From the NCBI GenBank assembly GCA_963720565.1, contig CAVRFW010000007.1, positions 56,404-120,403 of the forward strand: 64,000 bases of DNA. The letters are read 5' to 3'. How positions within the stretch are numbered: position 1 is the first letter of the stretch; each line of letters starts with the position of its first letter. Positions 4 through 38,315 of the stretch are shown one piece after another. The notes under the pieces were generated by a model. That model saw only the letters and a list, made by a program, of their open reading frames with translations. It did no database searches and was not told the DNA's origin. The translations under genes and the position numbers were made by a program. This DNA is from Candidatus Bathyarchaeota archaeon (GTDB taxonomy: Archaea; Thermoproteota; Bathyarchaeia; Bathyarchaeales; Bathycorpusculaceae).

Positions 4-243
4 GTGCTAGACGGTATAGGCATGGGACCTATTTCCGGGAATTTGACTTTGACTGGATTGTCCCTTGGTAAACATGAAATAACAGTTATCGTTTGGACTG
101 TGAGGGGAGTTTTTTCTCAAACAGTCTACTTCAGCGTTTCGGAGCCAGAGCCTTTCCCAACCCCGCTGGTCATAAGCTTCGTAATCGCATTGATTGCTGT
201 TGGCTTGGGTTTGCTGGTTTACTTCAAGAAACGCAAGCGTTAA
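4..243 (+). CDS. C-terminal end of a surface protein (Ig-like domain + EPFPT-TM-KKR anchor), truncated by window start
   Basis: LDG...NLTLTGLSLGKHEITV Ig-like motif, then EPEPFPTPLV...GLGLLVYFKKRKR. Confidence 0.85.
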   Translation: MLDGIGMGPISGNLTLTGLSLGKHEITVIVWTVRGVFSQTVYFSVSEPEPFPTPLVISFVIALIAVGLGLLVYFKKRKR

Positions 244-422
244 GCAGAATTGTTGAGTCAATAAAGTTTTACAAAAACGATTTTATCACGCCGTCACCCC
301 GATGTAACTGGGAACAGACATGAACAAGAATGCGGGAGTGTTAATCGTTCCGGTTCTCCTAACTTCGCCTTTCTATGCGCAGCCTAATGCAGCTTTTGCT
401 GCCTCTGGAGGTGAAGAACGCA

Positions 423-1133
423 ATGAGTAAACTCAAAGAGATTGCACTATTCATCGTCATAACTGTAATAATTGCTGTACCCCTCTACTTCCTTACCCTC
501 ACTGGCTACAGCTACGGTACTACTGACAAGTGGATCTTGATTGCGTTGAACGTGGTTTTCCTTGCCCTCTTTCTCCTGTTTCTACCCTTCAAGAAGAAGG
601 TGGCGCGTCTGCCCAACAGCGTCTATCTCGCCTTCATACTAGCTCTCTACGTGGAGATGTATGGCATCCCACTGACAATGTTTCTGTTCGCAGGCTTCTT
701 CGGACAAAACAACATATTCTCGCTCGAGTTCCTCCTCGCAGGCGTGGTAGGTCAAGAAACGTTCTACCGCGTTTTCAACACCTACATCTTTCCCCTGTCC
801 AAAATCATTATGGGCATAGGCATACTGCTGATCATTTACGGTTGGAGGGCAATCTACAAGGGTAGAAAAGAAGGCAAGCTTGTGACCACAGGCCTCTATG
901 GCGTCATCCGCAACCCGCAATACGTAGGCTTCCTGTTGATCACTCTGGGGTTAAATGTGATGTGGCTGACCATAATCACGCTCATACTCTGGCCTATACT
1001 GGCAGTGCTTTACTGGCAGCTCTCAAAAAGAGAAGACAAAGACATGGAGAAACAGTTTGGGCAAGAATTCGTAGATTACAAGAATAGGGTTCCAGGCTTT
1101 TTCCCACGCTTGCGGAAGCGTTCTGCCTCTTAG
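423..1133 (+). CDS. Isoprenylcysteine carboxyl methyltransferase / phospholipid methyltransferase family membrane protein
   Basis: Multiple TM helices; LVTTGLYGVIRNPQYVG and E..M...FGQEF..Y...VP motifs; GGAGGTG RBS before ATG 423. Confidence 0.85.
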   Translation: MSKLKEIALFIVITVIIAVPLYFLTLTGYSYGTTDKWILIALNVVFLALFLLFLPFKKKVARLPNSVYLAFILALYVEMYGIPLTMFLFAGFFGQNNIFSLEFLLAGVVGQETFYRVFNTYIFPLSKIIMGIGILLIIYGWRAIYKGRKEGKLVTTGLYGVIRNPQYVGFLLITLGLNVMWLTIITLILWPILAVLYWQLSKREDKDMEKQFGQEFVDYKNRVPGFFPRLRKRSAS

Positions 1134-1241
1134 GAGAGAAGAGATGCGCTATCTTGCATTTCAATCTCTCCCGGGAAAAACCGCTGGATTATGGAAACCC
1201 CCAGAAATAAGCATGGCGACAAAAGTGGATGGAGACTAGGC

Positions 1242-3428
1242 ATGAAAGTAGTACACGAAATAATGTTAACATTGTTGCTGACCAGCGTGTTAACATTACC
1301 TTTCTCCGTTGAACTCGTTCGATCCGAAGCATTAACCATTGTCATTATGGCTGATGGGACAATTGCCCCTTCAACAGCACCCTTTCTTCGGGATGGAAAC
1401 CGTTACGCGTTTACCGGCAACGTTTTTGGCGAAATTGTGGTGGAGAAAAGCAACGTAACAGTGGATGGAAACGGGTATACTCTTCAGGGTTCAGGAAGCG
1501 GAAGTGGGATCAAACTGGCAGGAGTAAATGGCGTCACGATACAGAACACAAATATCCAAAGCTTCACATCCGGCCTCTGGTTTGACGGTTCTTCTGGAAA
1601 CACAGTCTTTTCAAACACAATAGCAAACTGCAGCTATGATGGAATTCGTCTTGACGGATCTTCTGGCAATACCATCTCCAGCAACACAATTAAAGACAAC
1701 TATCAGAGCATCCGCCTTCATAGCTCTCCAGACAACAACATCTACAGGAATGTTATAACAAACAGCTACCACGCCGTCTTTTTGCACAGTTCCTCTGACA
1801 ACACCATCTCCGAGAACACGATAACAAACATTTACCTTAGAGGCTTCGAACTCTACAGTTCTTCAGACTTCAACACTATATCCAAAAACAACTTGACAAA
1901 CAGCTTCAGAAGCATATGGCTTTCTGTTTCTTTCAATAACACTTTTTTTGGTAACACAATAACAGGAAACAACTACGAGGGTTTCTCCTTCTACGGTGCA
2001 TCCAACAACACCATTTCCGGAAACACCATAACAAACAGCAACTATGACGGCATTTCCCTCTACGGTTCTTCGGAATCTAACACAATAATCCAGAACACCT
2101 TCAGGGACAATTATCACGGAATCAACTTGCATGATCACTCAAGATTCAACGTGATTTCCGAAAACACGATAACGAACAGCAACCGCGGCATCCACCTTCA
2201 TGGATCTTCACAACTCAACACCATCAATGGAAATACCATAACAAACAATTACGAGGGCATTTACCTCGACAGTTCTACAGAGCTTAACACAGTTTCCCAA
2301 AACATTATAACCGACAGTAACCGCGGCATATACCTAGATGGTTCCTCCAAAAATAGTATTTCCAATAACACCTTAACAAGCAACACCGAAGGAATCTCAT
2401 TGTATGGCTCTTCTGAATTAAACGCCATCTCTGGAAACATAATAACAAAGAACGACTATGACGGCATCCACATCTACGATTCCCGATACAACACAGTCTC
2501 TGAAAACATCCTGACTGAAAACTATAATGGCATCTATCTAGATGGTTCCTCCAACAACACTGTTTCCGCAAATTCTATAGAAAATAATGGCAATGATGGC
2601 ATATGCCTAGATGATTATTCTGACTCCAACATTGTATCTGGAAACCTATTGAGAAACAATGGTTACGACGGCATCTATATCTATGGTTACTCAAAATTCA
2701 ATTTCATCTCAGCTAACACGATAAGGGACAATGGCTACGACGGCGTCTTCCTTTATTGTTCTGACAACAACACAATCTCCCAGAGCGTGATAGCGAACAA
2801 CTTCAGAGGGATCTTTTTCTGGAATTCTTCAGGAAACATCATCTCTGGAAACGCAATAGCAGACAACCGCTATGACGGCATGTGCCTCCACGGCGCTTAT
2901 AACAAAATCTTCGGAAATAACATAACAGACAGCAATTACGACGGCATTGGCCTTCACGGTGCATTCAACGTAATATTCGGAAACAACATATCGGGCAGCG
3001 ACTATGACGGCATCCACATCTATGATTCAGTTTACAACACGGTTTTCCATAACAACCTCGTCAACAATACACTTTCTGCTCGCTTATCAGACAGCACCAG
3101 TAGTTTGGACGGAGGCTATCCTTCAGGCGGTAATTATTGGAGCGACTACACAGGAATCGATGAGTATTCTGGCGCTAATCAAGATAAGCCGGGTAGCGAT
3201 GGCATAGGCGACACCCCATATGTTATCGATGAAAACAACCAAGACAATTACCCGCTAATGGCGCCATTTGCAGGCGATAACGACGACATAGTGTTGCCCA
3301 CTGAAGAAGTGTTTCCGTTAGCGCAGGTTGTTGTTGCTTCTCTAATTTTTGCTGCTGCTGGTGTGGTTCTGCTGGTTTATTTCCAGAAACGCCAGAAGGA
3401 CAAGAATTTATGCAGAACAAGGCAATAG
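1242..3428 (+). CDS. NosD/CASH parallel beta-helix repeat surface protein with C-terminal TM anchor
   Basis: Signal peptide, many GIxLxxSSxNTIxxNxI repeats, GGNYWSDY...DGIGDTPY motif, VFP-TM-YFQKR tail. Confidence 0.9.
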   Translation: MKVVHEIMLTLLLTSVLTLPFSVELVRSEALTIVIMADGTIAPSTAPFLRDGNRYAFTGNVFGEIVVEKSNVTVDGNGYTLQGSGSGSGIKLAGVNGVTIQNTNIQSFTSGLWFDGSSGNTVFSNTIANCSYDGIRLDGSSGNTISSNTIKDNYQSIRLHSSPDNNIYRNVITNSYHAVFLHSSSDNTISENTITNIYLRGFELYSSSDFNTISKNNLTNSFRSIWLSVSFNNTFFGNTITGNNYEGFSFYGASNNTISGNTITNSNYDGISLYGSSESNTIIQNTFRDNYHGINLHDHSRFNVISENTITNSNRGIHLHGSSQLNTINGNTITNNYEGIYLDSSTELNTVSQNIITDSNRGIYLDGSSKNSISNNTLTSNTEGISLYGSSELNAISGNIITKNDYDGIHIYDSRYNTVSENILTENYNGIYLDGSSNNTVSANSIENNGNDGICLDDYSDSNIVSGNLLRNNGYDGIYIYGYSKFNFISANTIRDNGYDGVFLYCSDNNTISQSVIANNFRGIFFWNSSGNIISGNAIADNRYDGMCLHGAYNKIFGNNITDSNYDGIGLHGAFNVIFGNNISGSDYDGIHIYDSVYNTVFHNNLVNNTLSARLSDSTSSLDGGYPSGGNYWSDYTGIDEYSGANQDKPGSDGIGDTPYVIDENNQDNYPLMAPFAGDNDDIVLPTEEVFPLAQVVVASLIFAAAGVVLLVYFQKRQKDKNLCRTRQ

Positions 3429-4486
3429 CACTAACACTTATCTTGTCTCTCTTTTGCCTACCGCCTGTTAGAGCTTTTGAGGTAACGGCCACTTTGACTT
3501 TGGAGAATCCAGGCGGTTATTACGGCGTGGCTTATGATTCTGGCAAAGGAGAAGTCTTTTTGACCAATGTGGATTTCGATTTGGTCTACGTAATTTCAGA
3601 CAGTAACAATGCAGTAGTCGCAAGTATACCCGTGGGGAGACAGCCTGTGGGAATAGCTTATGATTCTGCGAAGGGTGAACTATTCGTTGCCAATTATGGT
3701 TCCAATTCGGTTTCGGTTATTTCGGACAGTAACAATACCGTAATTGCAGACATACCCTGTGGGACCGCGCCCTTTGCCGTGGCTTATGATTCCGGTAAGG
3801 GCGAAATCTTCGTGTCCAACTATAATTCTAGTTCTGTCTCGGTGATATCGGATAGCACCTATACCGTAGTCGCAAACATAAGCGTGGGAATTCAACCCTG
3901 TGCTCTAGCCTATGATTCGGGTAAAGGAGAGATATTTGTGGGGCATGCTGGCTGCAATCAGGTTTTGGTGATATCGGACACCACTTACGCCGTTGTCGCA
4001 AACATAACTGTGCAAGATCCCTTGAGTTTGGTTTATGATTCCGGTAAAGGAGAAGTCTTTGTGGCTAACTATAATTCAAGTTCGGTCTCAATTATATCAG
4101 ACGCTACAAACCAGATTGTTGCAACCGTAAATGTGGGAGCAAATCCCGTAGGTATCGCGTATGATTCGGGTAATGGCCAAGTCTATGTGGCAAATTACAA
4201 TTCGAGCTCGGTCTCAGTGATATCCGACAGTAACAATACTGTAATTGCAAATGTAGCTCTGGAAAGCCATCCGCAGGGTATAGGTTTTGATTCTGGTAAG
4301 GGAGAGATATTTGTGACTTATTCTGAAAGCAACAGGATTTCGGTGATATCAATTTCCTCTATCCCACTGCCCGGTCCATCCGTTCCGGAGTATCCAATAT
4401 GGACGATTCTGCCTTTGACTGCCATATTACTAGGGGTCTTGTGTGCTGGCTTGCTGGTTTACGTCAAGAAACGCCACAAGCTCTGA
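3410..4486 (+). CDS. YVTN/YncE-family beta-propeller surface protein with VPEYP-TM-KKR tail
   Basis: Repeated AYDSGKGEIFVANYNSSSVSVISD blades, signal peptide, C-terminal TM. Confidence 0.9.
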   Translation: MQNKAIALTLILSLFCLPPVRAFEVTATLTLENPGGYYGVAYDSGKGEVFLTNVDFDLVYVISDSNNAVVASIPVGRQPVGIAYDSAKGELFVANYGSNSVSVISDSNNTVIADIPCGTAPFAVAYDSGKGEIFVSNYNSSSVSVISDSTYTVVANISVGIQPCALAYDSGKGEIFVGHAGCNQVLVISDTTYAVVANITVQDPLSLVYDSGKGEVFVANYNSSSVSIISDATNQIVATVNVGANPVGIAYDSGNGQVYVANYNSSSVSVISDSNNTVIANVALESHPQGIGFDSGKGEIFVTYSESNRISVISISSIPLPGPSVPEYPIWTILPLTAILLGVLCAGLLVYVKKRHKL

Positions 4487-4561: not shown

Positions 4562-5434
4562 TTGGAGATGATTGCAGTGCGAAAGACAACAAAGTTTCTA
4601 AGCTTCATTATCTTAGGATTACTTGCTGCTTCATTGCTTGATTTTCAATCTGTAAAAGCACAATATGCTGATGATGGAAGACCATTCCCCCTTGCTTCAC
4701 CAATTGAAATAACTTCACCATCTAACAGCACATATGATTCAGGGTTATTGATGCTCGATATCAGTTTCAAATTGATGCTCAATGTTGAAAAGACAAACAT
4801 AACAGTGCTTTACAGCCTGGATGGAAAAGAAAACACCACTGTCGCAGTATCAACAAAACTCTTTCCAGTAGAAACAACAATAACTTATGCAAACGGCTCA
4901 ACACAAACTGGCATTTCATCACTATTCTCTTATTACATCATCAATGCAAGCGTGGCTTTGCCAGAACTCCCTGAAGGTTTTCACAGCATATCAGTCTATG
5001 GAAGATATGAGCATGTTGGCGGCTCCAATTACAATGTGCATGATAGTAGCAGGGTTTGCTTTACAATCAATAATGGTAAGGCTCCAGTCATATCAAGTCT
5101 AAGTCTTGAAAACATAACTTACAGTCAAGATAATTTGAACTTGAATTTTACGGTTGACGAGTCAACTTCATGGATGGGTTATTGTTTGGATGAACAGGCT
5201 AACGTTACTTTGACTGGGAATTTCACGCTCACACAGCTGCCCTATGGCTCACACACAATAACTATTTACGCAAATGACACGGTTGGAAACATGGGCTCCT
5301 CTGCAACGATCAACTTCAGCATAGCACAACCGTTCCCAACTGCACTTGCCCTGTCATCCGCAGGCGTAGTGGCTATTGTCGGTTTGGGTCTTCTGGTTTA
5401 CCACAAGAAACGCTACAAGCTCAAGATTACATGA
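4562..5434 (+). CDS. Secreted Ig-like-domain surface protein with QPFPT-TM-KKR anchor
   Basis: Signal peptide; ITSPSN..Y, YSLDG and HTITIYANDTVGNMG Ig-like motifs; shared tail. Confidence 0.8.
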   Translation: MEMIAVRKTTKFLSFIILGLLAASLLDFQSVKAQYADDGRPFPLASPIEITSPSNSTYDSGLLMLDISFKLMLNVEKTNITVLYSLDGKENTTVAVSTKLFPVETTITYANGSTQTGISSLFSYYIINASVALPELPEGFHSISVYGRYEHVGGSNYNVHDSSRVCFTINNGKAPVISSLSLENITYSQDNLNLNFTVDESTSWMGYCLDEQANVTLTGNFTLTQLPYGSHTITIYANDTVGNMGSSATINFSIAQPFPTALALSSAGVVAIVGLGLLVYHKKRYKLKIT

Positions 5435-5480
5435 AGATTTGTCTAAACTAAAATCTAAACGACCTCTTGAAAAAGAGACT
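5430..5480 (+). repeat. Element B (array-terminal repeat) copy
   Basis: ATGAAGATTTGTCTAAACTAAAATCTAAACGACCTCTTGAAAAAG; similar to 16691-16755, 21291-21325, 22879-22947, 38310-38375. Confidence 0.75.
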
Positions 5481-5561
5481 TTCAATCAGTCGACCTTTAA
5501 GTTCTACGAGTGAAATGTTCAGTAAAGCGGGGGATTAGGCAACTTTTCCCCAGTAGCAGCG

Positions 5562-6392
5562 TCAATCAACAATGGGAACAAGTGTCCCTGAGCGAATGTA
5601 CCCAGAGGGTTCAGTAACGACTATCTGCCAGACATACTTGTAAACCACACCTTCCCCGTAGACAGGAGAGTAATCTGACGGCGGAACAGTAATCGGACTA
5701 ATATCGACCACAATTGGCCCAGTGAAGTTATGTCCATCAAGGTCAGTAACCTGTTTCAACGTCCTCAGATAGGCCCCCACTCTCATGCCCTGAAGTGAAG
5801 TCTTGTTCCAACCGCCAGCTCGTAACCCTAGCTGCAGAGCACGATACACTGACACAGAAGGTGAGAATGAAGAATTAACGTTTATGTAGGGAATCACTCC
5901 GAATTCATCATAGTACGCCATTGCCTCAACGTCGATTGCTTTCAAACGCTCATTTTCCCTCTGAAGGTCAAGAGCCTGAGTGTACTCGTAAAAAGCGAAT
6001 GCTGTAGTGACTATCAACAAGGCTGAAAGCAACAGAGCCCCTGATTTCAATCCGACTTTCTGGATGGAGAGACGCCGATTAGCTCCTTTAAGATTCCCTG
6101 TCTCTCTGACAGATGACACGTTTTCCACTGTCTGGATTGTGAGCAAAGCATCTTTTCCTTGTTCGGAAAGGCAGTATTTTCCGTATTCGTCGGTCTTTAT
6201 TAGTCCATTGAGCTTGGTCAGGTGATGTTGAAGATGCCCGCTGCTTTCAATGGATACCTTCTTTTTTAAATCAGCAAAGCCGAGTGCTCCTTCACTTAGA
6301 ACCTTCAAGAGAACTATGCGAGTTGGATGCCCTAGTGCGTCAAATACCTCTGCACGCTGGCGGTCTTTTTCGACATCTTCGGGTTTTTCCAT
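5562..6392 (-). CDS. Membrane-anchored ArsR-type winged-helix regulator with extracellular domain (C-terminus probably frameshifted)
   Basis: FDALGHPTRIVLL...LQHHLTKL..LI wHTH, then a TM helix; an alternative frame at the end reads IDAATGEKLP (PepSY-like). Confidence 0.8.
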   Translation of the reverse strand: MEKPEDVEKDRQRAEVFDALGHPTRIVLLKVLSEGALGFADLKKKVSIESSGHLQHHLTKLNGLIKTDEYGKYCLSEQGKDALLTIQTVENVSSVRETGNLKGANRRLSIQKVGLKSGALLLSALLIVTTAFAFYEYTQALDLQRENERLKAIDVEAMAYYDEFGVIPYINVNSSFSPSVSVYRALQLGLRAGGWNKTSLQGMRVGAYLRTLKQVTDLDGHNFTGPIVVDISPITVPPSDYSPVYGEGVVYKYVWQIVVTEPSGYIRSGTLVPIVD

Positions 6393-6693
6393 TTTTAGCA
6401 GCCCTTTATGTAAAGGGCTCATTTTGATATTTAATTCCTCGTTTGTAGACCTGTCTAGAAATAGAGTGAGAGTTAAGTCCAGTTTTGTGGACCAAGACAA
6501 GCTAACCAGTTATTGTCTGTAGTTTTTTGTAAGATGTGATTTTAGGATCTGAATGTTAAGTTTGAAAGCCAATAGAGGAGCGAAAAAGCAGGGATGGAAC
6601 CAAGGTAGCGGCAGCCACGCGCGCCAATAGAGATTTTTTGGAAGACAATTCCGTAAGGCTTAAAGATTGTTGCTGCTGAAAAGATTAGTTTTC

Positions 6694-7119
6694 TCAAGAT
6701 TCCGATTTCTTGCATTGATTGCAATAGGTGTGTATTTCCAAATGTTGCTCAATATGCGAGTGATTCAATTCTGCAGTTATTTGTGACATGAAATCCCGAA
6801 TGGTTAGTGATTCATAATTTTGTATCTTTGCGCAGTTCTTGCAGACGATGTTGATGTGGGGTGAAGTGTCTGGATCATATCTGGTGATTCCGTCACGAAA
6901 GCCCAGTTCTTGTAGCATTCCAATCTCTGTGAGCAAGTGCAGTGTCTGATAGACGGTTGCCAAGCTGAGGGTTGGATATTTCTTCTGCATTGCATGGTGG
7001 ATGTGTTCAACTGTTGGGTGTTCTTTGCTCGAAAGGATCAGTTCGCAAATCGCCAGACGTTGGGGGGTAACCCTGAAGTCTTTCTCATGTAATTTGGCGA
7101 TGAGTTGTTGAGTGTTCAC
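6694..7119 (-). CDS. Fur/PerR family transcriptional repressor
   Basis: RVTPQR, HPT, SLATVYQTL, HINIVCKNC, CNQC motifs; divergent from catalase. Confidence 0.92.
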   Translation of the reverse strand: MNTQQLIAKLHEKDFRVTPQRLAICELILSSKEHPTVEHIHHAMQKKYPTLSLATVYQTLHLLTEIGMLQELGFRDGITRYDPDTSPHINIVCKNCAKIQNYESLTIRDFMSQITAELNHSHIEQHLEIHTYCNQCKKSES

Positions 7120-7178
7120 AGTTACTAACTGTGAACTAGGTTATATAAAATGTTTTGTAAGAAATAAGAATACTTAAA

Positions 7179-7193
7179 TAATAATGATTACAT
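7179..7193. promoter_or_regulatory. Per/Fur-box-like 7-1-7 operator
   Basis: TAATAAT-G-ATTACAT between the divergent Fur/PerR gene and catalase; resembles the Bacillus Per box TTATAATnATTATAA. Confidence 0.5.
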
Positions 7194-7235
7194 CTTTGTT
7201 ATGAGTTAAAGTAATAGGGAATGGAGATAGTGAAA

Positions 7236-8684
7236 ATGGAGAGCAAAAAACACTTGACAACCGACCAAGGCGTGCCGGTCACTGACAATCAAAACTCTTT
7301 AACCGTCGGTGAACGCGGTCCTGTCTTGCTGCAAGATGTTCAATTTATTGAGAAGATGGCTCATTTTGATAGAGAGCGTATCCCCGAACGAGTTGTTCAT
7401 GCCAAGGGGGCAGGAGCGCATGGGCATTTTCAAGTTTATAGAAACATGGCGGCCTACACCAAGGCGAAGTTCCTTCAAGATCCAGAGAAGAAAACCCCTG
7501 TCCTAGTAAGGTTTTCAACCGTGACCGGAGGAAGAGGCTCAGTTGATACTGCGCGAGATCCCCGGGGATTTGCCGTAAAGTTCTACACTGATGAGGGTAA
7601 CTACGACTTGGTCGGAAACAATCTGCCCGTGTTTTTCATCAGAGACGCTATCAAGTTCCCTGATATGGTGCATGCTTTTAAGGGTGAGCCTGATAGCAAC
7701 ATCCCGTCTTCTTCCTCTTCACATAACAACTTTTGGGAATTCATCTCTTTGACTCCTGAATCCACACACATGATCATATGGCTCTTTTCAGACCGAGGAA
7801 CCCCGAAAAGCTACAGGATGACCGAGGGCTTTGGTGTTAACACCTATGTCTGGGTGAATTCAGAAGGAAAGCGGGTTTATGTAAAATATCACTGGAAGCC
7901 GAAATTGGGTGTGCACAATCTTGACCGCCATGAAGCAACTAGGTTGGCGGGTGCCGATCCTGACTATCTGTCTCGTGACCTTTGGGATGCTATCGCCCGG
8001 GGTGAAGAGGTTGAGTATGAACTCTGCGTCCAGCTGATGGAAATTGAGGATGAATTGAAGCAGGATTTTGACCCACTGGATCCGACTAAAACCTGGCCCG
8101 AAAGTAAATTCCCACTCATGCCGGTTGGGAAAATGGTGTTGAATCGGAATCCCAGGAACTTTTTCGCTGAAATTGAGCAGGCGGCTTTCTGTCCAGCCAG
8201 TATTGTTCCAGGAGTAGACTTCTCAGCGGACAAGCTGCTTCAGGGTCGAACGTTCTCATATGCGGATACTCAGCGTCACAGATTGGGACCCAACTACCTG
8301 CAGATCCCTGTGAACCGTCCACTTGTTGAGGTCAACAACAACCGGCGCGATGGAGCCATGCAAATGGAAACTTACAGTGGTCGCGTGAATTATGAGCCCT
8401 CTACACTTGACGGCGGATCCCCCGTGGAAGCTCCGTCAGGAACCGCTTCCGCCTATTCTGTTGAGGGAGAGGTGGCCAAGAAGAAAATCAGTAAAACCAA
8501 CGATTTCCAACAAGCACGTGAGAAATATCTTTCCCTGAGCAAGATGGACCAGGAACATCTCGCCGATAATCTAATAGCCGATCTGACCCCTATCGAGAAA
8601 CAAATCCAGCTGCGAGCCATCGCGAATCTGACTAAGGCGGACCCGGAGCTCGGCAAAGCCGTGGCTGAGGGCTTGAAACTCTAA
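7236..8684 (+). CDS. katA: Monofunctional heme catalase (small subunit)
   Basis: FDRERIPERVVHAKGAG active-site signature and RTFSYADTQRHR heme-ligand signature. Confidence 0.97.
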   Translation: MESKKHLTTDQGVPVTDNQNSLTVGERGPVLLQDVQFIEKMAHFDRERIPERVVHAKGAGAHGHFQVYRNMAAYTKAKFLQDPEKKTPVLVRFSTVTGGRGSVDTARDPRGFAVKFYTDEGNYDLVGNNLPVFFIRDAIKFPDMVHAFKGEPDSNIPSSSSSHNNFWEFISLTPESTHMIIWLFSDRGTPKSYRMTEGFGVNTYVWVNSEGKRVYVKYHWKPKLGVHNLDRHEATRLAGADPDYLSRDLWDAIARGEEVEYELCVQLMEIEDELKQDFDPLDPTKTWPESKFPLMPVGKMVLNRNPRNFFAEIEQAAFCPASIVPGVDFSADKLLQGRTFSYADTQRHRLGPNYLQIPVNRPLVEVNNNRRDGAMQMETYSGRVNYEPSTLDGGSPVEAPSGTASAYSVEGEVAKKKISKTNDFQQAREKYLSLSKMDQEHLADNLIADLTPIEKQIQLRAIANLTKADPELGKAVAEGLKL

Positions 8685-8713
8685 AACTGACAAAAGAAGC
8701 GCACGCTGAAAAG

Positions 8714-8738
8714 ATAGGGCTAAAGTCGCCCTATTTTA
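8714..8738 (+). terminator. Hairpin + T tract after catalase
   Basis: ATAGGGC-TAAAGTC-GCCCTAT-TTT. Confidence 0.5.
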
Positions 8739-8867
8739 TCGCAAAAACCATCGTTAATCAGACGCAACAGGAACATCCTTAAATGAATCAACCTAGTCCA
8801 TCGTTTTTTTGTTTCCGCGCGCCAAGAATAGGACACTAATGCAGAGAAACTGCGGGGTCATTTTATT

Positions 8868-28724: not shown

Positions 28725-28800
28725 TTAGTCAAGGAATCTTGACTGGCATAAGGGCGCGTCCAGTCAAGAAACCTTTACAAAAACCCCTTTTAGCGTGCAA
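28725..28800 (+). repeat. Element A copy with perfect palindromes
   Basis: AGTCAAG-GAAT-CTTGACT; CTTGACTGG-N13-CCAGTCAAG with GGCGCGT in the spacer. Confidence 0.88.
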
Positions 28801-28824
28801 ACACCACATAAAACAGGAACGAGC

Positions 28825-30222
28825 ATGAGTAGAACTGCAGCAGTACTGATAGTTCTGGTTTTCCTTGCGTCAATTCTCGCCATACCAGTTAACCCCGTTT
28901 CTGCAGCATCTCCGGACTCATGGACAGCAAAAACGCCGATGCGGGAAGCAAGAGGCGGCTTAGGCGTTGCCGTAGTAAATGGCAAAATCTACGCAATAGG
29001 AGGCTCCACAGCAAGCGGACCATATCGCCCAGATGCTTTCGCCGGTGACTTTGTTGGAACAAACGAGGAATACGACCCAACAACAGACACGTGGACCACC
29101 AAAGCTTCAATGCCAACTCCAAGAGACTACTTCGCCATAGCCGCTTACAAAAACAAAATATACTGCATAGGTGGAGCTGTGGGTTTTAGCGTGGATGAAG
29201 TATCTGGATTTCACTCATACGTTACTTCTGGAGTGACAGAGGTGTATGATACAATCACGAACACTTGGGTTGCCAAGAAATCCATGCCCGATGACGGAAT
29301 GCAGATTCAAGCCCATGTGGTAGACGGAAAAATCTTCGTTATGGATTGGTCTTTGGTGTATGTTTATGATCCTGAAAAGGATTCGTGGTCTGAGAAGACA
29401 CGGATGCCTCCGCCTTATCCTTGGTCTTCGCCGGTCTCCGCTGTCGTAGGCAAGAAAATTGTTGTCACTGGTGAGTTTAGAGTCGGATGGAATTACACTT
29501 CAGCCCAGAAAGTCATGGTTTACGACACGGAAACAGACGGCTGGAGCGAAGGCGAGACTGGTCCAGTCCTTGTTGTTAATGATGCGGCTGTGGCTACAGC
29601 TGGTGTTAACGCTCTTCAAAGGATTTACGTTTTAGGCTTAAACGCTGGACAGTATCCTGCGCCTTCTACTAATCAGGTTTATGATCCAGAGGCTAACGCT
29701 TGGACAGCAGCCACTGCGATGCCTACGTTTCGTGTTGATTTTGGTGTTGCAGAGGTTAATGATGTCTTGTACGCAATCGGAGGGTACTCTTACACATCAG
29801 GCATACACGGTACTGTGACACCAACCGCGGTGAACGAGCAGTACTTCCCCCTCGGTTATGGGGTTCCGCCTGAAATCAATGTTGTTTCGCCAGTGAATCA
29901 GAAATACAATGGGTCCAGTGTTTCCCTGATTTTCACCGTGGGCAAGCAGGTTAGTTGGGTGGGTTATAGTCTCGATTGGGTGGAAAACGTGACGGTTGCT
30001 GGAAATGCCACTCTTGCTGGATTGTCGAATGGTTTGCACAGCGTGGTGGTTTATGCCAATGACACCTTCGGAAACATGGGAGCATCAGAAATTGTGTCTT
30101 TCACGGTAGCTGTTCCAGAGCCTTTCCCAACAACCCTTGTCATCGTCTCCGCAATCGCAGTAGTCTTGGTTGGTTTGGGGTTGCTGATTTACTTCAAGAA
30201 AGCAAGAAAAAACTTCGCTTAG
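28825..30222 (+). CDS. Kelch-propeller + Ig surface protein with EPFPT anchor
   Basis: Kelch repeats, Ig-like C-terminal domain, conserved tail. Confidence 0.9.
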   Translation: MSRTAAVLIVLVFLASILAIPVNPVSAASPDSWTAKTPMREARGGLGVAVVNGKIYAIGGSTASGPYRPDAFAGDFVGTNEEYDPTTDTWTTKASMPTPRDYFAIAAYKNKIYCIGGAVGFSVDEVSGFHSYVTSGVTEVYDTITNTWVAKKSMPDDGMQIQAHVVDGKIFVMDWSLVYVYDPEKDSWSEKTRMPPPYPWSSPVSAVVGKKIVVTGEFRVGWNYTSAQKVMVYDTETDGWSEGETGPVLVVNDAAVATAGVNALQRIYVLGLNAGQYPAPSTNQVYDPEANAWTAATAMPTFRVDFGVAEVNDVLYAIGGYSYTSGIHGTVTPTAVNEQYFPLGYGVPPEINVVSPVNQKYNGSSVSLIFTVGKQVSWVGYSLDWVENVTVAGNATLAGLSNGLHSVVVYANDTFGNMGASEIVSFTVAVPEPFPTTLVIVSAIAVVLVGLGLLIYFKKARKNFA

Positions 30223-31857: not shown

Positions 31858-31925
31858 ACGCGCAGGAAATTTGACTATAAAATGGGCGTGTTTAGTCAAG
31901 AAACCTTTACAAAAACCCCTTTAAA
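31858..31925 (+). repeat. Element A copy
   Basis: TTGACTA-N15-TAGTCAAGAAACCTTTACAAAAACCCCTTT. Confidence 0.85.
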
Positions 31926-31959
31926 ACACAGCCACCAAACAATACATGGCGAAAAAAAC

Positions 31960-33444
31960 ATGAGCAAACACGCTGCAATTCTCCTTGCACTAATCTTACT
32001 CACTCCACTACTTGTAGCGCCGGTTCGGCCTGTCTCTGCTGCTACGTCGGATTCTTGGACGACTATGGCTCCTATGCAGGTTGCGAGATGCGATTTGGGC
32101 GTCGTCACGTTAGGCGGCAGAATATACGCAATAGGCGGAAGCACAGAAAGCGGATACATACCGAACACCGTTGGAAACAACTACACAGCCAAAGGATGGA
32201 TATCGAACTTCAATGAAGAATACAATCCGGCAATAGGCACATGGGCTTTCAAGAAGCCAATGCCCACTCCCAGATACGAGTTTGCGGCAGCTGCTTGCCA
32301 GAACAAGATCTACTGCATAGGCGGTGTGGTTGACTGGCATGTTGGATACTATATTAACCGCACAAAGATCAATGAAGTTTACAACCCGGCGGCTGATATA
32401 TGGGAGAAGAGAGCATCTGTGCCTTTTAGCCCAGAGGGTCAGGCAAACGTTGTTGGTGGCAAAATCTATTTGGTCGGAGGAGGCGAAACAGGAACGTTAA
32501 ACCAAGTCTATGACCCTGCAGCCGACTCTTGGACCCTCGGAGCTTCCTTGCCGGAGAAAGTCTCATTTCAGGTATCTGTTGTCCTCGACGGCAGAATATA
32601 CGTCAGCGGATTCCTTCAATCCTTGGGAAACGAGTTCCTTGATTCTAAGAATTATGTCTACGACCCGCCAACTGACACTTGGGCCTCGTGTGCCGCTCTT
32701 CCAGCCGACACTTTCAGCGGCGAAGGTGTCCCATGGAGGGGGAACTGGTCGTCGGAAGCTGCCGGTGCAACAACAGGAACGTTGTCTTTAAAACGGATCT
32801 ACGTTTTTTTCACGCAGTATGTTTATTCAGGTCCACTTCCGAATCTGGTCTACAACCCGGTTAACGACTCTTGGTCTCGTGGCGCTGATGTCCCCACAAA
32901 CCGTGAAGATTTCGGCGTTGCTGTCTTAGATGACATGGTGTATCTGGTTGGAGGAAAATATCTTGAGTATCCGTTTCCTGATGACAATTACTTCACAGTA
33001 ACACCATTATCGACTAATGAGAGGTATACTCCGTTTGGTTATGGGGTGCCAGACCCCTCTCCCGTGAAATTCTTTGACAGCATTGCCCCAAAAATCACAA
33101 TTACGTCACCAGAGAACAAAACGTACAACACGGACAGTGTCCTCTTGAACTTCACAACTAGTGAACACGCCGCCCAAATACTGTATAGTCTTGACGGATT
33201 GGAAAACGCGACGTTAAGCGGGAACATCACTCTTTCTGGATTGTCAAACGGTGTGCATGACTTGATTGTCTACGCCAATGACACTTCTGGAAACACTGGA
33301 GCCTCAGAAACGCTATTCTTCACGATCGCAAAGCCAGAGCCTTTCCCAACAACACTACTCCTCGGCTCCGCAATTGCAGCAGTGGCTGTGGTTGGCGTTG
33401 GTTTGCTGTTTTACCTCAAGAAACGCCGGGCAATTCCTCATTGA
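31960..33444 (+). CDS. Kelch-propeller + Ig surface protein with EPFPT anchor
   Basis: Kelch repeats; paralogue of 11687 and 28825. Confidence 0.9.
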   Translation: MSKHAAILLALILLTPLLVAPVRPVSAATSDSWTTMAPMQVARCDLGVVTLGGRIYAIGGSTESGYIPNTVGNNYTAKGWISNFNEEYNPAIGTWAFKKPMPTPRYEFAAAACQNKIYCIGGVVDWHVGYYINRTKINEVYNPAADIWEKRASVPFSPEGQANVVGGKIYLVGGGETGTLNQVYDPAADSWTLGASLPEKVSFQVSVVLDGRIYVSGFLQSLGNEFLDSKNYVYDPPTDTWASCAALPADTFSGEGVPWRGNWSSEAAGATTGTLSLKRIYVFFTQYVYSGPLPNLVYNPVNDSWSRGADVPTNREDFGVAVLDDMVYLVGGKYLEYPFPDDNYFTVTPLSTNERYTPFGYGVPDPSPVKFFDSIAPKITITSPENKTYNTDSVLLNFTTSEHAAQILYSLDGLENATLSGNITLSGLSNGVHDLIVYANDTSGNTGASETLFFTIAKPEPFPTTLLLGSAIAAVAVVGVGLLFYLKKRRAIPH

Positions 33445-33536: not shown

Positions 33537-34823
33537 GTGAAGAATACAGCGTTAGTAATGACACTAATACTGGCACTCCTAACGTCACTAATGTTTGGAG
33601 TGCAGCCTGTTAAGTCAAGTCCTAAAACCATTGTTGTCCCTGAAGATTATTCCACAATTCAGGAGGCTGTCAGTCACGCTGCTGACGGCGACACAGTGCT
33701 GGTGAAAAACGGAATCTATCCAATGGATGAAAACACTACAATTGTTATAAGCAAAACTCTGCACCTAGTCGGAGAAGACCCTGCAAAAACAGTGATTCTT
33801 GGAGTCTCCAGCAATCAATATGACAGGGGTGTCGCAATTAGGCTTGCAGCCCCAAACATAACAGTCTCAGGATTCACTATAACAGACTTCAGGGTGGCGA
33901 TTGCGTTGGTAAACTATTTTGGAGAGCCAAATCCCTTAGGATGCAGAATAATCAATAACAACATCGTAAACAATTCTGAGGGCATCAGACCTCAAAGAAA
34001 CGACCTGCTTATTTCGGAAAACAACATCACCAAGAACGGCATCGGAATAGCAGGTTACAATACAGAAAACGTCTTTGTCACTCGAAATAACATAAGCGAA
34101 AACGGGTATGGCGTAAATATTGGAATATGCAGAAACATCACGATCAGCGAAAACCAAATTTCTGATAACACGGGCGCAATAAATCTAGCCTATTATGGAC
34201 CTTACTTTGTCTATGGCAATAAAATAACAGACAACAGTTGGGGAATCAGATTTGCAGAAGCCTGCAGCAACGCAACCGTCTATGGCAATAACATCACGCA
34301 AAACGGTGTTGGAGTCGCGTTGCTTAATTTCCCAAACGCTGGAGACATAGTTGTCAGCGGAGTCGGAAACACAGTTTTTGGCAATCTGTTCCTTAATAAC
34401 ACTAGGCAAGTAGCCAAGGAAGAAAGCAATTACAACTATCCAAACACGACGAGAATGGGCACAGACATTGTCTCATGGGATAACAGCACCGTAGGCAACT
34501 ACTGGAGTGACTATTCTGGACTGGACTATAACAATGACGGAATAGGCGATACAGCATACATCATAGACGAAAACAACAAAGACAACTACCCGTTAATTTC
34601 GCCATCTGAGATGTCTCCAATTCCAAATTCCAATTCGCCTCCTTCACCAACACCCATACCTACACTGGCTCCAACACCGACTACAAGTCCAGAACCCACA
34701 CCGGAACCGGAGCCTTTCCCAACAACCTTCGTCATCGGTTCCGTAGTCGCTGTGGTGGCTGATGGTTGGTTTGGGTCTGCTGGTTTACCTCAAGAAACGC
34801 CGTCGTTAAGCAGAAACCTTTAG
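33537..34823 (+). CDS. NosD beta-helix surface protein; anchor frameshifted near 34762
   Basis: IVVPEDYSTIQEAV, GNYWSDY, EPFPTT; GLGLLVYLKKRRR* lies in another frame. Confidence 0.88.
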   Translation: MKNTALVMTLILALLTSLMFGVQPVKSSPKTIVVPEDYSTIQEAVSHAADGDTVLVKNGIYPMDENTTIVISKTLHLVGEDPAKTVILGVSSNQYDRGVAIRLAAPNITVSGFTITDFRVAIALVNYFGEPNPLGCRIINNNIVNNSEGIRPQRNDLLISENNITKNGIGIAGYNTENVFVTRNNISENGYGVNIGICRNITISENQISDNTGAINLAYYGPYFVYGNKITDNSWGIRFAEACSNATVYGNNITQNGVGVALLNFPNAGDIVVSGVGNTVFGNLFLNNTRQVAKEESNYNYPNTTRMGTDIVSWDNSTVGNYWSDYSGLDYNNDGIGDTAYIIDENNKDNYPLISPSEMSPIPNSNSPPSPTPIPTLAPTPTTSPEPTPEPEPFPTTFVIGSVVAVVADGWFGSAGLPQETPSLSRNL

Positions 34824-34885: not shown

Positions 34886-35839
34886 ATGAAGAAAACTGCA
34901 TTGGCATTGGCTGCAATAATGGGGTTTGTAGTCATTGCTCGTCCAACGGTTGCGATTGCAGCTGCTAATCCTATCCCTTACCCAAATACACCCAGCACAG
35001 AATTGCCAACTCTGACTATTAGAACCCCAAAAAATTATTCTGATTACTATGCAAATAACACCTTCAAATTAGAGTTTATTATTATACAACCTGAGTCTTG
35101 GAATTCATACTACAGGGGATTTATCCCCATCATAGGATCTTACGGCACGCGCGTGTATTTGGATGGCAATGCTAACTGGAATCTTCAAAGGTCTCCAAGA
35201 AGTAACACTGTAACAGACTATGCAGCCATTTTCAGCAACCTGACTGACACTGAACATGCAGTGCACATAGTGGTTGAGGCAAGTGCATCTTACAGGGCAT
35301 ATTATACGAAAGATGGTGAAACTATCACAACTGGAAGAACAAACAACACCTACATCACCCAAACCGTGCATTTTCAACTAGAACCTGCTTCCAAAACAGT
35401 ATCATTCCAAAAGGATCCCCAGGTAGTGAGCAAAGACCCCTATCCAGACCCCCCAACACCTGTTCCCACTACGATTTCGCCTCAAAACACAAGCTACACC
35501 ACAGACAACATAGCCCAATTCACGCTGCCACTATGCTTCACAATCAACGCAACTGCTTCATGGATAGGTTACTGCTTGGATAATCAATCAAGAATTACCA
35601 TTCATGGAAACAGCACTCTATCAGAATTAAGTGCAGGTCCACATAACATGACATTGTTTGCCAGCGGCACTTTTGGCAATATGGGTATTTCAAACACCAC
35701 TTACTTCAGCATAGAGCCTGCGACAGAACCAGGATCCCTCCCTGGAATTCCTGTCACGGCATATGTGAGTGTGGCAGCCACTCTCAGCATTGGCTTGCTT
35801 GTCTACCTCAAGAAACGCCGTGGGGAAAAGAGTCCATGA
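34886..35839 (+). CDS. Secreted Ig-like surface protein with TM-YLKKR tail
   Basis: MKKTALALA...AANP signal; WIGYCLD and HNMTLFA Ig motifs. Confidence 0.8.
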   Translation: MKKTALALAAIMGFVVIARPTVAIAAANPIPYPNTPSTELPTLTIRTPKNYSDYYANNTFKLEFIIIQPESWNSYYRGFIPIIGSYGTRVYLDGNANWNLQRSPRSNTVTDYAAIFSNLTDTEHAVHIVVEASASYRAYYTKDGETITTGRTNNTYITQTVHFQLEPASKTVSFQKDPQVVSKDPYPDPPTPVPTTISPQNTSYTTDNIAQFTLPLCFTINATASWIGYCLDNQSRITIHGNSTLSELSAGPHNMTLFASGTFGNMGISNTTYFSIEPATEPGSLPGIPVTAYVSVAATLSIGLLVYLKKRRGEKSP

Positions 35840-37590
35840 AGAAGGCAGCAGTATTGTTGGCATTTAGCGTGGCGATTCTAATCTCAACACTTTCCGTCAT
35901 TCAGGCTAAAGCCGAGCAGTGGAGCTCACCAGCACAAATCGTGACCCCTTGGTTGGCTAGGCAAGTTGCTCTCTCGATGAGTGCTGATGGAAGCAAAATA
36001 TTGTATTCCGCCTGGGAGGGAGAAGGAGACTGCGACATTTTCATCATCAACTCTGACGGTACCGGGGAGAAGCAGTTAACGGATAGTTCAAGGCTGGAAG
36101 GGTATGCATCAATCAGCGCTGATGGGAGCAAAATTGCCTTCTTGTCCTTCAAATGGTGGGACACTGGTGCGGGCGAACCTCTTCAGGTTGATTATCAGCT
36201 TTTCGTGGTGAATTCAGACGGCACGGGACTTAGTCGGCTGACCGATATGGAAGCGGGCATCCCGTCTATCAATGGCGATGGCAGCAAAGTGGCATTTTGC
36301 TCTGAGGGACTTCTCTATGTGGTTAACTCAGATGGAACGGGACTCAAGCAGCTAACCAACACTAGCACTGCCCTAGACCCTGTTATTAGCGGGGACGGAA
36401 GCAAGATAGCGTTTATCTACAAAGTATACGATTCTGACCCCAATGAGGAAACCAACGATCCCTATTCTGACGATTACGAGTTGCTGGTCATAAACTCTGA
36501 TGGAACGGGACTGAGACAGCTGACTTTCAACCGTTACATTTACTATTTTGACACCTATCCCTCAATCAGCGCTGACGGCAACAGAATAGCTTTCTCAGAT
36601 GGCCCACTTTTCGTGGTTAACTCTGACGGAACAGGACTCAAACAACTGACCAGCAATGGAACAACGAGTATACTCTTCCCCTCTATAAACGGGGATGGAA
36701 CCAGGATAGTTTATTCCTCGTCTCAGTACCTGTATGGGGATAGCACTGTGACCTTTTTCTTGACTAGTACCGATGGGTCAGAATTGACCAACTTGGGATC
36801 TTGGGGTTTTGGCGAGGTGGCTGGGGGACCTTGCATTAGTATAGACGGAAGCACTATAGCCCTCCCATTTTATCGTGAGGGAATCTATGTTAGTTATAAC
36901 ATGGACAGATACAAAGATTTGAGCCCGCCCACCTCAGCTGCAGCCTATGACGGGCAGTGGCATGCCTCTGACTTCAACATCAACCTCACGGCTTCTGACG
37001 ACTTGCTAGTAGCTGCGACTTTCTACAAGATCAATAACGGTGAGACAAAAAACGTCGCTGAAGATGGGCAACCGCTCATCATTACAGAAGGTGCAAACAA
37101 CACGCTAGAATACTGGAGCAGAGATATCTCGGGAAAAATTGAACAGCACAGGCTCTTAACCGACATAAAGCTTGATAAATCAGACCCCACAGGATCGATA
37201 ACCATAAACGACGATGCCAACTCCACCTATTCCACTTCGGTCACACTTTCAATAATCGCCAGTGATGTCTCAGGCATAGCAGAAATGCGTTTCAGCCACA
37301 ATGGAACAGACTGGACAACTTGGGAAAAGTACACTGAATCCAAGAGCTGGACGCTACTTGCGGGAGCAGGAAGCAAGACCGCGTATGCCCAGTTTAAAGA
37401 CAACTCTGGGATGGTTTCCCAAATCTACTTCGACTCCATCGAATTAGTCGTTTTTGAACCCACATCCACGCCACAGCCAGAGAATTCTACTGCATCACTC
37501 GTTGCAGCTTCAGTTGGTATCGCAACAGCTCTCACAGGAACATGTCTGTTCGTTTATTTGAAGAAATTCTGCAGGAATAAGAATCCATGA
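35836..37590 (+). CDS. TolB-like (PD40) propeller + Ig-like surface protein
   Basis: Repeated PSISADGSKIAF...VVNSDGTGLKQLT; C-terminal TM-YLKK. Confidence 0.88.
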   Translation: MKKAAVLLAFSVAILISTLSVIQAKAEQWSSPAQIVTPWLARQVALSMSADGSKILYSAWEGEGDCDIFIINSDGTGEKQLTDSSRLEGYASISADGSKIAFLSFKWWDTGAGEPLQVDYQLFVVNSDGTGLSRLTDMEAGIPSINGDGSKVAFCSEGLLYVVNSDGTGLKQLTNTSTALDPVISGDGSKIAFIYKVYDSDPNEETNDPYSDDYELLVINSDGTGLRQLTFNRYIYYFDTYPSISADGNRIAFSDGPLFVVNSDGTGLKQLTSNGTTSILFPSINGDGTRIVYSSSQYLYGDSTVTFFLTSTDGSELTNLGSWGFGEVAGGPCISIDGSTIALPFYREGIYVSYNMDRYKDLSPPTSAAAYDGQWHASDFNINLTASDDLLVAATFYKINNGETKNVAEDGQPLIITEGANNTLEYWSRDISGKIEQHRLLTDIKLDKSDPTGSITINDDANSTYSTSVTLSIIASDVSGIAEMRFSHNGTDWTTWEKYTESKSWTLLAGAGSKTAYAQFKDNSGMVSQIYFDSIELVVFEPTSTPQPENSTASLVAASVGIATALTGTCLFVYLKKFCRNKNP

Positions 37591-38315
37591 AGAAAACAGC
37601 CTTATTCCTCGTACTCATTCTTGGAATTATCTTAGCTCCAGCTGTCACACAAAAAGTCAACTTGACAGGAGCAAATCCCATCAACTATTCACCACCTGAG
37701 CCAGCAATTCCAGAGTTCACTTTAAAATATTCAGATAATTCCTATAATGTGGTTGGCAACTTCGTACAGAATAAATCAATAGAGATCACAATCAAGAATC
37801 AGCCAACAGCTTATGTCCTTTGCTATAATGCTAAAGCAAAAAGTCACTCTTCTGAAAATTGGACATCCTATGAGTATTATAATAACAGTAGCTATCTTAC
37901 TCCCCAGTTCTTTCTTCCAAATAGACTGTTAGCTTGGAATTCTACCATGACTGTTCTTGCTTTCGGCTTTCAGGGAAACAATGGTTCCGACAACTACAAT
38001 TTGATGTTGGGAAAAGTCAACGATGGTGACAAGATAGATTTTCAAGTTCAAGCATACATAGGGAATTGGTTTCCCGGCAGAGTAGTCAATGCCACTGCCA
38101 GCATTGATTATTGGTCATTAAATATTGATGCAACAGGCGATTGGAGCCCCACACAAACTATAACCATTCAAGAAAGTTCTATTCCAGAACCTACACCCCT
38201 ACTAGAGCCTTTCCCAACAACCCTAGCCATAGTGTCTGCAATTGCAGTGGCTGCTGTGTTCGGTTTGGGTTTGCTGGTTTACCTCAAAAAACGCCAAAAG
38301 ACTACGAACGCATGA
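37587..38315 (+). CDS. Secreted surface protein with EPFPT anchor
   Basis: Signal peptide, P.IPEFTLK, FQVQA.IG, GDWSPTQTITI, conserved tail. Confidence 0.82.
   Translation: MKKTALFLVLILGIILAPAVTQKVNLTGANPINYSPPEPAIPEFTLKYSDNSYNVVGNFVQNKSIEITIKNQPTAYVLCYNAKAKSHSSENWTSYEYYNNSSYLTPQFFLPNRLLAWNSTMTVLAFGFQGNNGSDNYNLMLGKVNDGDKIDFQVQAYIGNWFPGRVVNATASIDYWSLNIDATGDWSPTQTITIQESSIPEPTPLLEPFPTTLAIVSAIAVAAVFGLGLLVYLKKRQKTTNA

Follow-up and report, generated by a model that had tools for sequence, protein, structure and literature searches.

Crossover in the tandem lpl cluster of S. aureus is described as occurring at a conserved nucleotide block inside each ORF, so that the moving unit runs from the last part of one ORF through the intergenic DNA into the first part of the following one (PMC2568036). 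The esaG and tipC immunity clusters are likewise described as losing genes, expanding and becoming mosaic through homologous recombination, which acts at short blocks conserved among the tandem genes (PMC9484751). In T4-type phages, the PeSL cassettes, small repeated regulatory elements between unrelated genes, drive shuffling and can form mini-circles (PMC2839356), and for the H. pylori Type III mod genes, motif-encoding DNA is reported as a recombination arm between non-orthologous genes that underlies movement of target-recognition domains (PMC3467074).

We compared these systems with a row of about 20 mostly unrelated surface-protein genes in a sediment archaeon of the Bathyarchaeia. As in the lpl cluster, homology switches at a conserved nucleotide block within the ORF, but the lpl genes are described as all paralogous with a central block, whereas this array is archaeal and joins mostly non-homologous bodies to a block of ~27-35 bp in the C-terminal anchor. 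As in the esaG and tipC clusters, tandem genes are lost, gained and mixed at short conserved blocks; those clusters are depicted as single-family paralogues, whereas unrelated folds with only the anchor in common are found here. Unrelated genes are shuffled both here and by PeSLs, whose promoter part the U module (below) resembles, but PeSLs are presented as non-coding with known mini-circles, while the array is known from contigs and its main crossover word is coding. The DNA of a conserved protein motif is the recombination arm here as in the mod genes, where, by that account, a domain moves within one enzyme family at separate loci; whole cassettes move in the array. Integrons and CALINs, archaeal ones included, share co-oriented cassettes, order polymorphism and enrichment in secreted proteins, as outlined in bioRxiv 10.1101/2022.02.06.479319, but the array has neither an integron integrase nor a folding attC-like site, its site is coding, and many of its cassettes have promoters of their own. 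It also differs from tRNA-anchored integration arrays in having no tRNA or tRNA-tail repeats at its junctions. No published description of such an array was found in a search that covered few subscription journals.

The stretch of DNA analysed (the window; 64,000 nucleotides) contains 21 anchor-tail copies between 139 and 38308, detected with a DNA model of the tail and carried by 19 ORFs (Table 1); the array itself starts ~2 kb upstream of the window, at C7:54301. The tail consists of a Pro-Phe-Pro motif, a membrane helix and a basic stop. The ORF bodies match Kelch, NosD/beta-helix, YVTN/NHL, PQQ, PD40, PKD or Ig models, with some matching none, and the profile matches comprise at least six unrelated folds. 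An Ig-like domain adjoins the tail in many cassettes, and the row is broken by unrelated passenger genes (catalase, Fur, CorA, EamA, ferredoxin). An earlier note on this DNA had described about 20 unrelated surface genes with a common tail, which holds except that some bodies are paralogous (three Kelch, several NosD); body homology was absent in 164 pairs and present in 24. Its 16-mer was recovered exactly at 207, 14257, 15573, 16646, 17522, 22835 and 38267, all on the + strand, as are all 21 tails, again as claimed; the 2.09-Mb genome has nine copies, eight on this contig. The description of the tail as near-identical over 90 bp did not stand: mean column identity is 64% (17 copies), with peaks at the 27-bp core and EPFP. 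Nor does every tail close a surface gene. The 17522 copy is an orphan over the start of an antisense gene, and the 13160 tail is internal to an 872-aa ORF holding two cassettes in one frame. A one-base assembly error could account for this fusion; as the assembly has split genes in many places, neither it nor the frameshifts were taken as biology. An apparent 15-bp inverted repeat around 11575-16745 was dropped, as it is absent at other blocks.

Table 1. Parts of the array (window coordinates; U, promoter module; D, downstream element).
Feature	Position	Strand	Remarks
Anchor tail of first cassette	139..251	+	gene begins upstream of window; core 208-234
U right behind tail (tail-U junction)	235..304	+	
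Passenger, PEMT/ICMT-like membrane protein	375..1133	+	accompanies next NosD gene in relatives
NosD/beta-helix cassette	1191..3428	+	tail 3297-3408
YVTN beta-propeller cassette	3410..4486	+	PEY-type tail 4375-4485
Ig-like cassette	4562..5434	+	tail 5320-5429
D behind tail	5429..5494	+	in L066/L101 (relatives) moves with the HTH gene behind it
D-to-U passenger block (ArsR-like HTH, Fur, catalase, CorA, GYD protein)	5562..11252		
U	11575..11670	+	two GTCAAG-N4-CTT(G/T)AC palindromes 44 bp apart, then BRE/TATA-like word; putative promoter with operators
Two cassettes, one frame	11687..14305	+	Kelch+Ig, internal tail 13160-13266; then NosD, tail 14181-14297
NosD cassette, ATGA-overlap junction	14302..15630	+	tail 15502-15614
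PKD/Ig cassette	15627..16733	+	tail 16570-16690, one-base shift past core; core-to-core bounds in L067
D	16689..16755	+	
Orphan tail, exact core	17454..17561	+	meets foreign DNA at CG run; overlaps start of antisense ORF 16925-17485
U	18405..18470	+	
PQQ-type propeller cassette	18485..19898	+	tail 19774-19907; one-base shift near 18686, absent from a relative's contig
D then U	21286..21410	+	
Surface cassette with Pro/Thr linker	21426..22883	+	tail 22761-22878, then D 22877-22945
NosD cassette	23023..24138	+	tail 24029-24147, then U 24131-24200
Ig-like cassette	24214..24846	+	tail 24769-24837
Cassette with shortened tail	24843..25538	+	tail 25417-25493, fused to U fragment 25494-25523
Surface cassette	25691..27439	+	tail 27320-27435, then D 27433-27505
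Passenger, EamA transporter (D-to-U interval)	27557..28486	+	
U	28715..28809	+	two palindromes 35 bp apart
Kelch+Ig cassette	28825..30222	+	tail 30106-30212
U and Kelch+Ig cassette	31878..33444	+	tail 33325-33431; U-to-core bounds in L053, L078
NosD cassette	33537..34823	+	tail 34697-34816, frameshifted, then U 34802-34870
Ig-like cassette	34886..35839	+	tail 35719-35834, unlike the tails in four relatives whose bodies are 87-88% identical
PD40/TolB-like propeller+Ig cassette	35836..37590	+	divergent tail 37468-37585
Last cassette	37587..38315	+	tail 38191-38308
Terminal D	38310..38376	+	

The core lies inside the tail and encodes GLLVYxKKR. At 32 genome sites, a count that includes one mis-anchored row and a few non-coding remnants, 190 of 216 same-residue codons equal the consensus, versus ~35% expected; the consensus codons have frequencies of 0.16-0.61 genome-wide and in TM segments, whose codon usage equals that of the genome. 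The fixed synonymous codon choice proposed earlier is thus borne out for the core, beyond chance. Agreement with this consensus is 0.88 here, 0.76 over 68 tails whose loci were found by DNA pattern, and 0.46-0.64 when tails of six other genomes are picked by protein (71/118 in G006). The cross-genus test used 60 protein-picked tails, with 13 lacking the anchor motif dropped; a test on pattern-found loci was set aside as circular, since the DNA pattern itself had found them. Other genera remain above the expected 0.35, which leaves room for DNA-level constraint. The core sequence drifts among lineages, and one locus (L032) has its own homogenised junction in seven copies. Synonymous identity was also higher in tails than in paralogue bodies (4-fold sites, 115/270 vs 217/666), although over the whole tail the gap is modest (0.43 vs 0.33); the 4-fold tail value is 0.43 for paralogues and unrelated bodies alike. 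For signal peptides it is 0.35, with starts so poorly aligned that they were left out of the argument. The core codons point to homogenisation by concerted evolution.

Two further repeats mark the junctions, the palindromic module U and the downstream element D. From its palindromes and BRE/TATA-like word, U is probably a promoter with operators; it folds (z -3.7), owing only to the repeated palindromes. The core and the U palindromes have TCAAGAAAC in common. The core might be conserved as a regulator binding site for the promoter of the next gene, with shuffling as a by-product. In 8 of 10 tail-U junctions the tail TCAAG is placed 34 bp ahead of the U box, like the 34-35-bp operator spacing of two-operator U modules (10 of 24), and the U palindrome is kept in 9 of 41 genomes, another family among them. 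However, the tail has a half-site only, which does not cover the fixed codons upstream (G, L, L, V, Y). What follows most tails is D or an ATGA-coupled gene, not U, and descent from one shared junction type could account for the equal spacing. We regard this account of the core as very improbable.

Array order differs across relatives, and neither this nor the synonymous identity of tails against paralogue bodies gave the outcome that the earlier note had named as a refutation. Among 138 non-redundant junctions, each of the 17 upstream cassette families with two or more occurrences is joined to differing downstream neighbours, and conversely 12 of 14 downstream families have more than one upstream neighbour. 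Junction pairs with both flanks in common are all ~99% identical, and no G000 junction has both flanks in common with a relative. In shared-upstream pairs homology stops at core +24 to +32 in 20/36, and in shared-downstream pairs it begins at -12 to +2 in 9/18, although gathering the junctions through the core favours breakpoints there and the pairs are interdependent. In one case a 100%-identical cassette is followed by three different partners, all of which begin just past the core. L037 combines the upstream part of L090 (100%, 2,365 bp) with the downstream part of L035 (99.5%, 3,164 bp), joined within 35 bp, and the join reappears in L095 at 93-95% identity. L070 corresponds to L048 without a ~700-bp cassette, its join falling in a 14-bp start-codon word. 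Crossover words are several: the core, the start-codon word at the signal-peptide start, in which one clean join falls outside the core, and the EPEP/EPFP block. The TM-coding part mostly stays with the body it belongs to, and the downstream gene often brings along the preceding stop and last few codons as well as its own start. The earlier proposal of a tail spread or homogenised by recombination is supported by breakpoints at the tail, with the working arm being the 27-35-bp core, not the 90-bp tail; its further suggestion, an arm that swaps new domains into the array, would go beyond the shuffling, gain and loss of whole cassettes seen here.

All joins were read from assembled contigs, most near-identical switches from short metagenome contigs, and joins in 35-bp perfect repeats could be assembly chimeras. 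Short contigs of runs X1-X5 have joints mostly at tails and U modules, with short sides and weak support. The array could have arisen by plain paralogue expansion and domain accretion under protein selection, the switches being chimeras across the repeat. The modest synonymous gap would suit this explanation, as would the sorting-signal-like nature of the tail peptide, which 24 of 61 related genomes carry, often at dispersed sites. Yet protein selection does not fix synonymous codons, order differs between G000 and G002 on genome contigs of 92-120 kb, and joins recur in separate assemblies (L066/L101, L090/L093, L037/L095). At 14 bp, the L070 join is below the usual length of assembly words, and an ordinary chimera would need a longer stretch. 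We consider this explanation unlikely. Against shuffling, the order of the first two cassettes of one array is kept in G001 and G003, as read from protein ends.

Every core crossover mapped could have taken place at a single shared 5-bp point at the core end, as a site-specific enzyme would give. A recombinase encoded elsewhere might bind the core and cut at its 3' end, in an integron-like system with an att site in anchor codons. Homology ends clustering within 8 bp, co-oriented cassettes and the word shared by core and U palindromes are in keeping with this, as are bare intergenic cores: the one at C7:36430 lacks the upstream helix code, and the downstream remnants differ in L052/L081. Against it, no recombinase was found in or beside the array (54 window ORFs scanned), and recombinase searches of this genome gave no match tied to it. 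Three PF00589 hits, all on other contigs, correspond to tyrosine recombinases, one intact-looking and two in fragments, and every one adjoins a tRNA or tRNA-like end. Neither the window nor the 37 kb upstream has a tRNA. Resolvase, Y1 transposase and reverse transcriptase were not found in the genome (89% complete), and its one IS110-type gene is broken and far from the array. In relatives, a tRNA adjoins the integrase in 7 of 14 integrase- or array-bearing regions. An integrase match within the L036/L038 arrays was rejected, being a 137-bp passenger fragment from the end of the tRNA-type integrase gene; the metagenome loci were checked for relatives of that one integrase and through the starts of 85 ORF clusters. 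The core lacks a dyad, and as attC-like hairpins eight folds of tails or junctions, computed for both strands, were no better than shuffles (z -1.57 to +0.67); no Rfam match occurs in 1-40000. We hold a site-specific system to be doubtful.

Crossovers outside the core, together with core drift, therefore favour short-homology recombination with concerted evolution over one fixed recombinase site. We think it reasonably probable that the junction words, chiefly the core, re-join cassettes by general short-homology recombination, with no dedicated recombinase. Protein constraint on the anchor (GLLVY, then a basic cluster) would give the initial DNA similarity, and crossovers and gene conversion would homogenise anchor codons within the gene pool, keeping the anchor recombinogenic. 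If the DNA from one junction to another were deleted, a cassette would be excised, possibly in circular form, and could re-enter at another core; alternatively, incoming DNA could replace the stretch between two junctions. Either route would give gain and new order. Each product would retain a signal peptide, a full anchor and an ATGA-coupled start or promoter, and so stay expressed, because the cut falls within coding DNA common to all cassettes. The genome has a RadA gene; tracts no longer than 35 bp are short for exchange of the RadA type, and a literature search on short homology for such exchange found nothing.

The anchor probably is an archaeosortase-type sorting signal: a motif-helix-basic C-terminus occurs in the same genome as two exosortase/archaeosortase-family genes (TIGR04178, 53 and 40 bits, cut-off 23), neither passing the archaeosortase C cut-off. 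As in the descriptions of PEF-CTERM (TIGR03024; PMC5244752), motif, membrane helix, basic C-terminal cluster and archaeosortase-family genes occur together, but no window protein or isolated tail matches TIGR03024 above cut-off, whereas the PEFP tail of a relative (G020) does (24.8, cut-off 23). Because of this, and since their best match is a below-cut-off Loki-CTERM, the EPFP tails look like an unnamed subtype of archaeosortase signal.

Sediments harbour abundant Bathyarchaeia, whose cell surfaces are poorly known. The array supplies mapped junctions, a candidate unnamed archaeosortase signal and a putative surface-gene promoter module. Were a recombinase acting in trans, any entering cassette would be expressed and anchored at once. 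With a shared anchor that doubles as a recombination word, unrelated surface modules could be reordered, gained or lost in one step, leaving secretion, anchoring and expression intact, and a protein motif could thus turn into a genome-shuffling site without a dedicated enzyme.

A DNA model search located 21 copies of the tail, the C-terminal anchor code (EPFP motif, membrane helix, basic stop) shared by the surface-protein cassettes, all on the same strand. The earlier note had assigned this tail to about 20 unrelated genes; this holds for 19 ORFs with Kelch, NosD, YVTN, PQQ, PKD, PD40, Ig-like or unassigned bodies, but one further copy is an orphan and one is internal to an ORF. The 16-mer reported at seven positions is exact at all of them and occurs nine times across the source genome (G000; 2.09 Mb, 89% complete), in which the window is contig C7, 56404-120403. 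The row begins ~2 kb upstream of the window start, is broken up by passengers, unrelated genes among which are catalase, Fur, CorA, EamA and ferredoxin, and is accompanied by smaller tail-gene clusters on contigs C9 and C10. Exact matches to the core, a 27-bp word inside the tail, were found in 12 stretches among 185,579 species genomes, all 12 titled Bathyarchaeia or Bathyarchaeota. Within the array, a Fur-family regulator and catalase form a divergent pair, likely a peroxide-stress module, and a small ORF of ~60 codons, shorter than the cut-off used for ORF calling, which presumably resembles a 4-oxalocrotonate tautomerase family protein, was well covered in several sequencing runs.

Near-identity of the tail over its full length was not borne out, per-column identity being only 64% (17 copies). 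The strong conservation signal is the core, coding GLLVYxKKR, with a second peak at EPFP. The consensus codon was used at 190/216 same-residue core codons (32 sites, source genome), and the same codons occurred at ordinary rates in transmembrane segments. Core codons matched at 317/417 in 68 tails lacking the search pattern, from loci that had themselves been found with it. Where a protein model was used to select tails from other genomes (47/60 usable), matches were 71/118 (G006), 36/64 (G003), 30/47 (G001), 10/21 (G033), 9/15 (G020) and 6/13 (G014), with ~0.35 expected; G017 had one usable codon, a mismatch. Fourfold sites in the last 60 residues matched at 115/270 in paralogues and 588/1,365 in unrelated genes. 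In paralogue bodies the figure was 217/666 (chance ~0.26), so that paralogue tails exceed bodies (Fisher p = 0.004, pairs non-independent), as the earlier note had anticipated. The peptide tail is present in 24/61 genomes, and one related locus (L032) has seven junctions with its own, different shared sequence. The exact DNA word is lineage-specific and the peptide tail widespread, the pattern of concerted evolution.

When array order was compared across relatives, the same cassettes were found at 83-93% identity in other orders. In loci L066 and L101, a C9-cluster cassette is joined through the core to the D element/HTH gene of window position 5375; in L078, cassette 31882 is joined to the start of 4562; in L035, cassette 23023 is joined to 34886; and one array in G002, a related genome, combines cassettes of C7, C9 and C4. 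Junction sites collected via the core numbered 187 core-like sites, 157 with both flanks and 138 once near-identical copies were collapsed. More than one downstream neighbour was seen for all 17 upstream families observed at least twice, and more than one upstream neighbour for 12 of the 14 such downstream families; the 25 pairs sharing both flanks were ~99% identical throughout. We conclude that the cassette-shuffling array is real. Joins within 35-bp repeats could be assembly chimeras, and public sequencing runs gave fragmentary contigs only. However, the same joins recur in separate assemblies (L066/L101, L090/L093, L037/L095) and order differs between genome contigs of 92-120 kb; together with a 14-bp join, these sequence comparisons speak against explaining all the joins by chimeras.

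Of 36 non-independent junction pairs with shared upstream homology, 20 lost it at +24 to +32 bp relative to the core, 11 before reaching the core, one within it and four further downstream; shared downstream homology started at -12 to +2 in 9/18. Clean crossovers were mapped in three recombinants. In two of them the exchange falls in a 35-bp word that includes the core; in the third it falls in a word of 14 bp at the start codon, and the join deletes a ~700-bp cassette. A fourth, weaker case places the crossover within 5 bp at the end of the core. Directly after the core, one cassette that is 100% identical across its helix code and core continues into three different partners, and cassette 34886 has its tail swapped at the EPEP block compared with four relatives. 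The proposal that the tail is a homology arm for exchange therefore stands in part: homology does break in the tail, but mostly at the core end rather than along the whole tail, and also at the start-codon word and EPEP. From these breakpoints and recombinants, the moving unit usually runs from core to core, taking in the previous protein's last codons, junction, signal peptide, body and helix.

Three junction types lie 3´ of the core. The first passes through a few codons and an ATGA overlap to the signal peptide of the next gene. The second has a stop codon and then the U module, which comprises one or two GTCAAG-N4-CTT(G/T)AC palindromes (paired copies mostly 34-35 or 43-44 bp apart) with a BRE/TATA-like word after them, suggestive of a regulated promoter. 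The U box was found in 9/41 genomes; G052, from another family, has 17 palindrome copies. The third has, after the tail, the D element, which opens with ATGAAGA, as signal peptides do; passengers sit between D and U. In relatives, D also occurs in longer forms, and these hold a perfect palindrome of 18 bp. GCGCGC is the most enriched non-coding 6-mer of the source genome (5.4-fold; 275/468 copies outside called ORFs), and CG runs stand at 16/65 homology-block ends versus ~9% background.

Features of the array and related loci (bare coordinates count from the window start; C, contigs of the source genome; L, loci of relatives)
Feature	Position	Strand	Remark
Tail copies	139 to 38308	+	DNA model
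Internal tail copy	inside 872-aa ORF	+	DNA model
Orphan tail copy	17454-17561	+	DNA model
U module	11575-11670, 28715-28809; also C3, C9, C10, C12, C13		also upstream of tail-less genes
D element	5429-5494, 16689-16755, 38310-38376; also L036, L038, L089		inverted repeat, 10-bp arms
Orphan core, decayed signal-peptide start	C7:36424-36501		behind histone-like gene; other remnants at same core in relatives
Orphan core, decayed signal-peptide start	C9:386790-386850		at C9 cluster end
CG runs	17460; C7:36424; C9:377480; C10:842		often at the border between a junction fragment and foreign DNA
137-bp passenger between D and U	L036:3846-3982, L038:3425-3561		95.6% identical to end of source-genome tRNA-type integrase gene
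Fur-family regulator, catalase	6694-8684		divergent
Small ORF	~10630-10820
Accessory region without tails	38609-64000		ABC transporters, methyltransferase, DinB, cupin, HhH-GPD glycosylase, UvrD fragment
Second large PQQ-propeller surface family	50269-52848, C3:164074, C13:52395-57678		own conserved C-terminal anchor; dispersed in genome
Ku gene	C3:159757-162586		between LigD-type ligase-like and polymerase-like ORFs (read from sequence)

An ORF scan showed no recombinase in the array, tRNA and Rfam searches gave no hit there, folding gave no hairpin, and searches of the 89% complete genome gave no match to a resolvase, Y1 transposase or reverse transcriptase. Its tyrosine recombinases lie on other contigs, adjoining tRNAs or tRNA-like ends. 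A recombinase acting in trans seems unlikely: the crossovers at the core may all lie at a single point, and intergenic DNA holds bare cores with variable contents, but there are several crossover words and the core drifts. Because of these last two features, general short-homology recombination is probably the best fit. RadA and Ku genes are present, and Ku with its LigD-like neighbours forms a putative end-joining cluster, of a type uncommon in archaea. Since some tail genes in relatives (L193-L195) directly adjoin integrase genes or lie behind a tRNA, cassettes may travel from cell to cell on integrative elements.

The array operates in the manner of the S. aureus lpl cluster (PMC2568036) and esaG/tipC clusters (PMC9484751), except that its members are not one family. 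Further parallels are the shuffling of PeSL cassettes in T4-type phages (PMC2839356) and the movement of domains in H. pylori (PMC3467074). The array departs from integrons on both the integrase and hairpin tests; the main-text portions of an archaeal integron preprint (bioRxiv 10.1101/2022.02.06.479319) do not mention Bathyarchaeia. The tail is built like PEF-CTERM-type signals (PMC5244752); a profile search of the window proteins gave no TIGR03024 match, and the genome has two sortase-family genes. Under short-homology recombination, the sorting signal would supply the similarity between cassettes, exchange would then homogenise the DNA of that signal, and every recombination product would keep a signal peptide, an anchor and expression.
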